Shown: positions 3,511-3,901, counted from the stretch's first letter. The stretch is DNA of 12,127 bases from Oscillospiraceae bacterium (GCA_022511485.1 JAFLUJ010000066.1:1-12127), one strand, 5' to 3'. Notes: generated by a model not told the origin, from the letters alone. Made by a program: numbers and translations.

Positions 3511-3747
3511 TTATTTGTTAGAGAAAATATTGAAATCCATAAGCTTTTGTTTTGAAAATACGGCGGCAAGAGCCATGGGAGCAAGTACTAAGGCTGCTGA
3601 AACGCCTCCGGATACTGCTGCTGCAATGAATATAAGCATAATTACTCCTGCCAGCTTCTGAGGAATGAGGCTGGCTTTTTTTCTGCGGACGGTCATGGTA
3701 ATTTTTTTTGCCTCCGGCATAAGAATTTTTGCATTTGAACCTGTCAT
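3511..3747 (-). CDS. Small (78 aa) membrane protein of unknown function, predicted SOS-regulated
   Basis: MTGSNAKILMPEAKKITMTVRRKKASLIPQKLAGVIMLIFIAAAVSGGVSAALVLAPMALAAVFSKQKLMDFNIFSNK has a basic N-terminus, a ~33-residue hydrophobic core and a short polar tail. The ATG at 3747 is preceded by AAAGGAA (3762-3756) with 8-nt spacing. The ORF-track start at 3819 lies inside the promoter spacer and cannot be transcribed. A dedicated consensus promoter lies 60 nt upstream. I recognise no family, and the coding call rests on the RBS, the promoter and hydrophobicity only. Confidence 0.6.
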   Translation of the reverse strand: MTGSNAKILMPEAKKITMTVRRKKASLIPQKLAGVIMLIFIAAAVSGGVSAALVLAPMALAAVFSKQKLMDFNIFSNK

Positions 3748-3787
3748 TTTGATCGTTCCTTTCTTTTCTTCGGAGACACATATGTTC

Positions 3788-3801
3788 CGAACGAGTGTTC
3801 T
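3788..3801 (-). promoter_or_regulatory. LexA (Cheo/SOS) box 2, covering the predicted transcription start
   Basis: The plus strand reads CGAAC-GAGT-GTTCT, with a full GAAC-N4-GTTC core. It lies 6 nt downstream of the -10 hexamer. Degenerate extra sites flank the pair: ACAC-ATAT-GTTC at 3776-3787 and GAAA-ATTT-GTTCG at 3846-3858. Confidence 0.6.
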
Positions 3802-3807
3802 TTTTAT

Positions 3808-3836
3808 ATTATAGAACAATCGTTCTGGTTTGTCAA
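3808..3836 (-). promoter_or_regulatory. SigA-type promoter (exact consensus) of the small membrane protein gene
   Basis: On the minus strand: TTGACA (3836-3831), a 17-nt spacer and TATAAT (3813-3808). The predicted TSS is near 3801-3800, giving a ~53-nt leader. Confidence 0.75.
3813..3826 (-). promoter_or_regulatory. LexA (Cheo/SOS) box 1, inside the promoter spacer and touching the -10
   Basis: The plus strand reads AGAAC-AATC-GTTCT. This matches the Firmicute LexA/DinR consensus CGAAC-N4-GTTCG in the full GAAC-N4-GTTC core and extends it as a 5+5 inverted repeat. Confidence 0.6.
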
Positions 3837-3871
3837 GAGATTTTGGAAAATTTGTTCGCTAAAATTTGCAC

Positions 3872-3901
3872 AAAAAATCCTCAGATATTTTCTGAGGATT
3901 T
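3872..3901 (-). terminator. Rho-independent terminator (minus-strand orientation) insulating the SOS promoter from upstream transcription
   Basis: A 10-bp stem pairs 3875-3884 with 3892-3901 (AAATCCTCAG/CTGAGGATTT) around a 7-nt loop. On the minus strand the T tract is TTTTTTG (3877-3871); its first three T (3877-3875) complete the stem and TTTG follows. On the plus strand the stem is followed only by ATATATT. Confidence 0.65.

Follow-up and report, generated by a model that had tools for sequence, protein, structure and literature searches.

The locus lies in a window of 12,127 nucleotides (the whole stretch of DNA that was analysed) from an Oscillospiraceae bacterium (GCA_022511485.1 JAFLUJ010000066.1:1-12127), and consists of a small monocistronic gene together with its promoter, an array of LexA-type boxes and a terminator upstream. 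The gene is convergent with feoB, as the earlier note had stated and the locus annotation confirms, its upstream neighbour is a Na/Pi cotransporter gene, and a hairpin array is located about 140 nt away within the same intergenic gap. The positions of the features are listed in Table 1. Those that the earlier note had given were all correct when examined by consensus scan and motif count, including the perfect promoter and the two exact boxes.

Table 1. Features of the small-gene locus, numbered from the first letter of the window.
Feature	Position	Strand	Remarks
Intrinsic terminator of the upstream Na/Pi cotransporter gene	3872..3901	-	hairpin and T-run
TTTTTTGTGCAAATTTT element, 5' of box 0	3861..3877	-	conserved
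Box 0, LexA-type, one mismatch, centre about -50	3846..3857		minus GAAC AAAT TTTC, plus GAAAATTTGTTC
-35 hexamer TTGACA	3831..3836	-	consensus scan
Box 1, exact GAAC-N4-GTTC	3814..3825		in the 17-nt spacer, fused to the -10 (GTTCTATAAT)
-10 hexamer TATAAT	3808..3813	-	consensus scan
Box 2, exact GAAC-N4-GTTC	3789..3800		across the predicted transcription start (about 3801)
Box 3, degenerate GAAC ATAT GTGT	3776..3787		abutting box 2
Shine-Dalgarno (SD) GAAAGGAA	3756..3763	-	8 nt before the ATG
CDS, 78 aa	3511..3747	-	ATG 3747, stop 3513-3511

The minus-strand promoter, TTGACA-17-TATAAT (3836-3808), scored 12/12 in the consensus scan. Read on the same strand, boxes 0, 1, 2 and 3 are CGAACAAATTTTCC (core 3857-3846), AGAACGATTGTTCT (core 3825-3814), AGAACACTCGTTCG (core 3800-3789) and GAACATATGTGT (3787-3776), respectively. 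Their centres fall at about -50, -18, +7 and +20, and given the centre-to-centre spacings of 32, 25 and 13 bp, the array extends from about -57 to +26. The exact GAAC-N4-GTTC core occurred twice in the 12-kb window, both times in the small-gene promoter; the expectation from shuffled sequences was 0.19 per window, and a count of two was reached in 1 of 200 shuffles. The host assembly (2.7 Mb, 363 contigs, 44% GC) contained 23 exact cores, and two relaxed boxes no more than 45 bp apart were found nowhere across the 2.7-Mb genome except in this promoter, the chance of any such pair in the genome being, as a rough estimate, about 0.008. The 5' UTR of the small gene is unstructured (fold z=+0.43). 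Judged by its hairpin and position, the upstream terminator insulates the gene against read-through, and in its regulatory logic the motif layout is that of a standard, if extreme, Gram-positive SOS promoter.

We then compared the promoter across 32 orthologous loci, corresponding to 23 distinct sequences, in an alignment anchored on the promoter. Note that all genomes compared were MAGs. The consensus of the 32 loci was cGAACAAAtTTTc-N8-TTGACAAA-N3-GAAC-N3-TGTTCTATAAT-ATAAATCAGAACAAACGTGCAGAACAwwTGTrC. Box 0 read CGAACAAAWTTTYC in 23 of the 23 distinct promoters, the -35 hexamer was at least 90% invariant, and the -10 hexamer was conserved too. Box 2 was GAACAAACGTGC in most orthologues and box 3 was conserved as GAACAWWTGTRC, the right half of both being GTGC or GTAC in most cases, not GTTC, and the number of boxes reached six in some orthologues. 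Boxes 0 and 3, which the earlier note had listed as degenerate sites, thus turned out to be real conserved elements, as both were kept in the 23 distinct promoters. The SD core GAAAGGA was present in all orthologues.

The array and the gene were found to travel together. Specifically, 27 genus genomes, all but one of the 28 with the gene, had AAC-N4-GTTCTATAAT 70-110 nt 5' of the protein match, and the 28th (L043) had GTTTTATAAT in its place; the reversed pattern, which served as the control for this count, was nearly absent. Homologues with 26-30% identity, from two other genera (G197, G043 and G025) and from metagenome contigs, also kept TTGACA-17-TATAAT, the spacer box and, on either side of it, one or two further boxes. 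The earlier note had suggested examining whether relatives retain both the ORF and the boxes, and they did so in 28 of 28 gene-bearing genus genomes, in three genera and in 23 distinct promoters. When the window was compared with one relative (L004), the regulatory stretch was identical at 88 of 101 positions and the flank just upstream at 15 of 36, with a coding dS of about 0.95. The upstream terminator was kept in L004 and in a further relative, L005, with compensatory changes in the stem (CCTCAG/CTGAGG vs CCCCGG/CCGGGG), and comparable terminators were present directly 5' of the promoter in most other orthologous loci. Since the gene context of the orthologues was otherwise variable, the conserved unit is an insulated cassette of promoter and ORF.

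The product of the small gene, MTGSNAKILMPEAKKITMTVRRKKASLIPQKLAGVIMLIFIAAAVSGGVSAALVLAPMALAAVFSKQKLMDFNIFSNK, is composed of a basic N-terminal part of 31 aa, an Ala/Gly-rich hydrophobic hairpin of 33 aa and the C-terminal motif FSKQKLMDFNIF. Pairwise dN/dS of the ORF was 0.06-0.28, and, judged by this purifying selection and by the conserved start codon and SD, the 78-aa ORF is a real gene. In the alignments, whose members span 78-114 aa, a conserved start MT(T/G)SNA(K/R) was followed by a variable basic stretch, after which Q-K-L-x-G began an Ala/Gly-rich hydrophobic block of 33-35 residues with a central GG(E/D). The alignments also showed an invariant Pro and, as the best-conserved segment, P-x-A-L-A-A-V-F-S-K-E/Q-K-L-L/M-D-F-x-I-F. 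Net charge across the protein family ranged from +3 to +8 in the N-terminal part and from 0 to +6 in the C-terminal tail. AlphaFold2 run on the alignment gave helices at 28-44 and 49-64, with VSGG between them and a predicted length of 16-17 residues each, at a modest mean pLDDT of 63. The basic flanks and the two predicted helices, taken with the positive-inside rule, suggest that the product sits in the membrane as a hairpin of two helices, its basic ends both facing the cytoplasm. A reading of the C-terminus as a clamp-binding motif was tried and rejected, as the Q was found in the closest relatives only.

A word-indexed search for homologues returned 7 clusters, and an exhaustive search of 1.84 billion representatives returned only 21, none of the clusters found bearing a name in any source. 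The earlier note had proposed profile searches and a transmembrane prediction for the protein. For the former, searches of Pfam, NCBIfam, PHROG, PADLOC and PDB with the protein and 25 aligned members gave nothing meaningful and assigned no family; for the latter, AlphaFold2 provided the two helices described above. The earlier view of the product, a small membrane protein from an undescribed family, therefore stands as regards the absence of a family match and the hydrophobic two-helix layout, the membrane location being predicted. Pfam was likewise negative for a LysM domain in the protein and in any of the 25 members, in line with the earlier note.

Of the 32 genomes in the window's genus, 28 carried the small gene (15 of the 16 that are of high quality), and it was present in two further genera of the Oscillospiraceae as well. 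With a first, narrower profile, it was detected in 7 of 201 genomes of the taxonomic family. Rabbit, deer and other guts yielded 16 species-level MAGs with the gene, which bear the labels Oscillospiraceae, Clostridia or Ruminococcus sp.

We next considered which repressor occupies the boxes. The host encodes one LexA (C123:13376-13954; LexA_DNA_bind 1.6e-11, Peptidase_S24 3.9e-34), on a contig other than that of the small gene, so that the gene is not beside lexA, as had been noted before. The host recA gene, on contig C97, carries AGAATAAATGTTCG immediately 3' of its -10 hexamer; this box was kept genus-wide as AGAAAAAATGTTCG while the surrounding spacer varied, and the small gene has this variant, GAAAATTTGTTCG, as its box 0. 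Across the genus, lexA is located immediately 3' of murC and is apparently cotranscribed with it (G000 C123:11952-13954; L060-L072). No box was found ahead of lexA or murC in the window's own genome (G000) and 12 other genus loci with a parsable lexA, nor was one found at uvrBA, and no Y-family polymerase (Pol IV/V) gene was found in the host. The comparison with the host's own SOS promoters, which the earlier note had put forward, was thus positive for recA and negative for lexA and uvrBA, and the assignment of the motif to LexA consequently rests on recA, on prophage promoters and on other Firmicutes. Of 121 high-quality genomes in the taxonomic family, only 85 gave a match to the LexA_DNA_bind domain, and GAACATATGTGC was present upstream of one lexA gene (L099). 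As for other Firmicutes, clostridial LexA binds GAAC-N4-GTT[C/T] in vitro, as examined by SPR in C. difficile (PMC4234289), DAP-seq with C. thermocellum LexA recovers the same motif (PMC8457756), and sites of this kind from gut metagenomes are bound by the LexA of B. subtilis (PMC3998124). Taken together, these results make it very likely that the repressor at the small-gene array is LexA.

A genome-wide scan by PWM and regex gave few credible intergenic sites besides the small-gene promoter and recA, the remaining ones being the promoter of a NUDIX gene and prophage-like regions. Note that the PWM was built partly from these sites, and its scores were therefore not taken as independent evidence. 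As far as these sites show, the genus has a very small chromosomal LexA regulon, comprising recA, the small gene and a few others. At the NUDIX hydrolase gene (G000 C123:10740-10830), the arrangement TATAAT-ATAAAAAAAGAACATTTGTTGT has the same layout of -10 and box 2 as the small gene, and the NUDIX gene may likewise belong to this regulon.

Elsewhere in the genus, promoters with AAC-N4-GTTCTATAAT belong to genes of mobile elements (L073, L075, L076, L080, L082 and L083; also L074, L078, L079 and L081), namely phage transcriptional regulators (phrog_36, E=3.5e-22), a GmrSD_N/DUF262 gene pair with a palindromic divergent promoter, and small phage-like ORFs. The exact boxes in these promoters are spaced by 33 and 26 bp; one is at about -50, a second occupies the spacer, where it is fused to TATAAT, and the third is at +7. 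By this arrangement, they match the expectation for SOS-inducible prophage modules, and the -50/spacer/+7 design looks like a reusable SOS promoter cassette. A second promoter of the small-gene type was observed in one orthologous locus (L044 620-1145, identical to L015; G233:C4), 705 bp 5' of the small gene's own promoter. It has the GTGCA element, box 0, TTGACA, box 1 and TATAAT, is devoid of boxes 2 and 3, and drives a 128-aa protein of the Glyoxalase/bleomycin-resistance superfamily; the flanks are repeated (AAATTAAACGTCTTG), which hints at duplication within the locus. Two sites in the window's own genome, C315:4074 and C178:9856, have strong LexA-type boxes (CGAACATCTGTTCG and AAAACATTTGTTCT) ahead of a common repeat, CTTACATATGAAAAGAATTTTTGATAAC; the former adjoins a Phage_Gp15 gene, and both sites are probably control regions of a prophage or ICE.

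The promoter and the gene are kept together in nearly every relative, and the small gene is therefore very probably an undescribed damage-induced membrane effector. The explanation that we consider probable as a whole is that of a tightly LexA-repressed, monocistronic gene for an SOS membrane effector, induced late and in a switch-like manner. In the undamaged cell, LexA dimers would sit on the four operators over the consensus sigma-A promoter and exclude RNA polymerase, and the upstream terminator would block read-through, so that the two together would keep basal expression minimal. Upon severe DNA damage, RecA-stimulated self-cleavage of LexA would empty the array. As high-affinity or multiple operators are induced last (a principle summarised in PMC4234289), the multi-operator array should delay release until LexA is deeply depleted, and induction should accordingly be late and switch-like. 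The freed consensus promoter, the strong SD and the unstructured 5' UTR would then give a burst of the 78-aa protein at maximal rate. The protein would insert as the two-helix hairpin with its basic ends in the cytoplasm, and would act via the conserved second helix and the C-terminal FSK(E/Q)KL(L/M)DFxIF motif.

The known SOS effectors SulA, YneA, SosA, ChiZ, DivS, SidA and TisB were found lineage by lineage and are unrelated in sequence. To our knowledge, no SOS-induced small membrane effector has been described for Oscillospiraceae, and our searches found no such description. Oscillospiraceae are abundant, poorly cultured gut anaerobes, and the small family provides a concrete, testable candidate for an SOS effector in them; its regulatory signature is unusually clear, and its short invariant motif can be targeted by mutation. 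The tiny LexA regulon and the reuse of the three- or four-box design for prophage control also bear on the effects of DNA-damaging drugs and diets in gut communities.

Among the described systems, YneA of Bacillus subtilis and the clostridial LysM-containing YneA-like proteins (e.g., Clo1313_1450, PMC8457756) are likewise small membrane proteins that serve as lineage-specific SOS effectors. The yneA genes have several LexA boxes (GAAC-N4-GTTC) and are strongly induced by damage, and the small gene shares the box array. However, the small protein is devoid of a LysM domain and of detectable sequence similarity to YneA, its gene is not divergent from lexA, and its predicted two-helix hairpin leaves next to nothing exposed outside the cell, whereas YneA has one TM helix and an extracellular domain. 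SosA of Staphylococcus aureus (PMC6851548) and SidA and DidA of Caulobacter (PMC4211646) belong to a similar size class (29-77 aa) and are membrane-anchored, damage-induced, mutually unrelated in sequence, and active on the late divisome. In contrast to the small protein, whose conserved ends are predicted to be cytoplasmic, SosA is encoded adjacent to lexA and acts through a C-terminal segment outside the cell; SidA and DidA have a single TM, whereas two helices are predicted here. TisB and DinQ, the LexA-controlled type I toxins of E. coli, are LexA-repressed small hydrophobic proteins that are harmful if uncontrolled. They are, however, single helices of 27-29 aa that have antisense RNA partners and whose primary transcripts are structured and translationally inactive, whereas the small gene encodes proteins of 78-114 aa with two predicted helices and has a strong SD, an unstructured 5' UTR and no conserved antisense partner. 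By these comparisons of sequence and layout, the small gene is in none of the YneA, SosA, ChiZ, DivS, SidA/DidA, TisB and DinQ families. As for the promoter, several LexA sites per strong promoter are also found in colicin operons, at recN and in the B. subtilis lexA/yneA region (three boxes), and such multi-operator promoters should give tight repression and late induction. The small gene differs from those in having four sites (up to six in orthologues), an exact consensus promoter and an array that is invariant across genera.

The regulatory part of the explanation has one competitor, in which a repressor different from LexA occupies the boxes, such as a prophage CI-like S24 protein or another dimer that recognises GAAC/GTKC, and the gene is not an SOS gene proper. 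The box-free lexA and uvrBA genes of the genus, the sharing of the promoter design with prophage and mobile-element genes, a second S24 protein on contig C314, and the many boxes that end in GTGC or GTAC are all consistent with such a repressor. Nevertheless, 28 genomes and three genera retain the array irrespective of the prophages that they carry, recA has its box throughout the genus, the lexA gene in L099 has GAACATATGTGC upstream, and the core equals the experimentally established LexA motif of Firmicutes and clostridia (PMC4234289, PMC8457756), so that we regard a non-LexA repressor as improbable. The earlier note had also raised the possibility that the hairpin array and the small gene belong together as one module, and their short separation within one intergenic gap would fit a mobile or functional unit of this kind. 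This did not hold up: L004 and L005 have the same order of transporter, terminator, promoter and small gene, with about 80 nt where the window has the array of 188-191 nt, and other species carry the small gene in unrelated contexts without the array. A common module is accordingly extremely improbable.

The effector action is the weakest step of the explanation. With LexA as the repressor, we tentatively propose that the protein is an inhibitor at a checkpoint of division or envelope synthesis, analogous and not homologous to YneA, SosA and SidA. That Gram-positives have linked SOS to division control more than once in evolution is already held in the literature (PMC3998124 and references there). 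Depolarisation of the membrane or formation of a pore is unlikely, and the remaining probability falls to other roles. In the toxin alternative, the regulation would be the same and the product would be a depolarising or pore-forming toxin, acting in TisB/DinQ-like persistence or pinholin-like lysis and release, in place of a division inhibitor. A heavily repressed maximal promoter suits a harmful product, and one family member gave a weak match to a PADLOC '2TM effector' (E=0.043). The protein also resembles class II holins and pinholins in its two helices, its ends, which are both probably inside, its charged tail and its core rich in Ala, Gly and Ser (small-xxx-small). This layout (two TM, N-in/C-in, charged C-terminus) fits by prediction only, with helices of 16-17 residues, and Ala/Gly-rich helices are as compatible with an oligomerising pore as with a divisome binder. 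On the other hand, the small gene is near-core and single-copy in the genus, and neither an endolysin or lysis cassette nearby nor a holin match in Pfam or PHROG was found. No relatives of the small protein were detected among 2.9 million viral contigs (IMG/VR) and 50,697 phage genomes (INPHARED), which makes a phage holin unlikely, and the neighbours are housekeeping transporter genes. A type I toxin of the TisB/DinQ kind was rejected because of the length of 78 aa, the two predicted helices, the unstructured 5' UTR and an antisense hairpin that is not conserved. Translation of tisB and dinQ is throttled, unlike what the strong SD implies for the small gene. We therefore give a toxin little preference, and rate it as an unlikely reading of the product.

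The checkpoint inhibitor is favoured over a depolarising toxin by the near-core status of the gene, the lack of viral relatives and of a lysis cassette, and the lack of any small YneA-like LysM gene in the host genome. Furthermore, the invariant residues in the second helix and the short, strictly conserved amphipathic motif of the soluble C-terminus suggest a specific partner rather than unspecific membrane damage. Among the lexA loci of other genera in the taxonomic family, 28 were parsed, and none had a YneA-like divergent neighbour; since most of the family has neither the small gene nor such a lexA-adjacent gene, no complementary distribution backs the division role. In its most specific form, which we put forward as somewhat doubtful, the checkpoint proposal would have a hairpin with essentially no extracellular part as the SOS checkpoint effector of this lineage, with a mode of action distinct from that of YneA and SosA, under a thresholded four-operator LexA switch on a portable promoter. 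Division or envelope synthesis would then be arrested from within the membrane or from its cytoplasmic face via P-x-A-L-A-A-V-F-S-K-E-K-L-L-D-F-x-I-F, and the portable promoter would also serve prophage induction and would have been copied onto other genes, e.g., the glyoxalase/bleomycin-resistance-like gene.

Several further observations were made at these loci. Inside the small ORF, on the plus strand, the window has a terminator-like hairpin followed by T7 (3650-3683), which was present in close relatives only and absent from distant orthologues; it could stop convergent read-through from feoB or end a short antisense transcript, for which a weak promoter-like site at 3530-3559 is a candidate origin. 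A TTTGTGCAAAA element (minus-strand TTTTTTGTGCAAATTTT, 3861-3877), which is not a full LexA box, is shared by the small-gene promoters and the LexA-boxed prophage promoters of the genus, and lies further upstream in the latter. In the loci of the most distant homologues (L054-L056 and L114 (G197:C91), about 28% identity), the small gene is divergent from a WYL-domain regulator (HTH_11-WYL-WCX). There, the small gene is followed by an overlapping 71-aa ORF without a family match, and two GAATATATGTTC boxes lie within the intergenic region shared with the WYL regulator. WYL-domain regulators are a class tied elsewhere to the control of DNA damage responses and defence.
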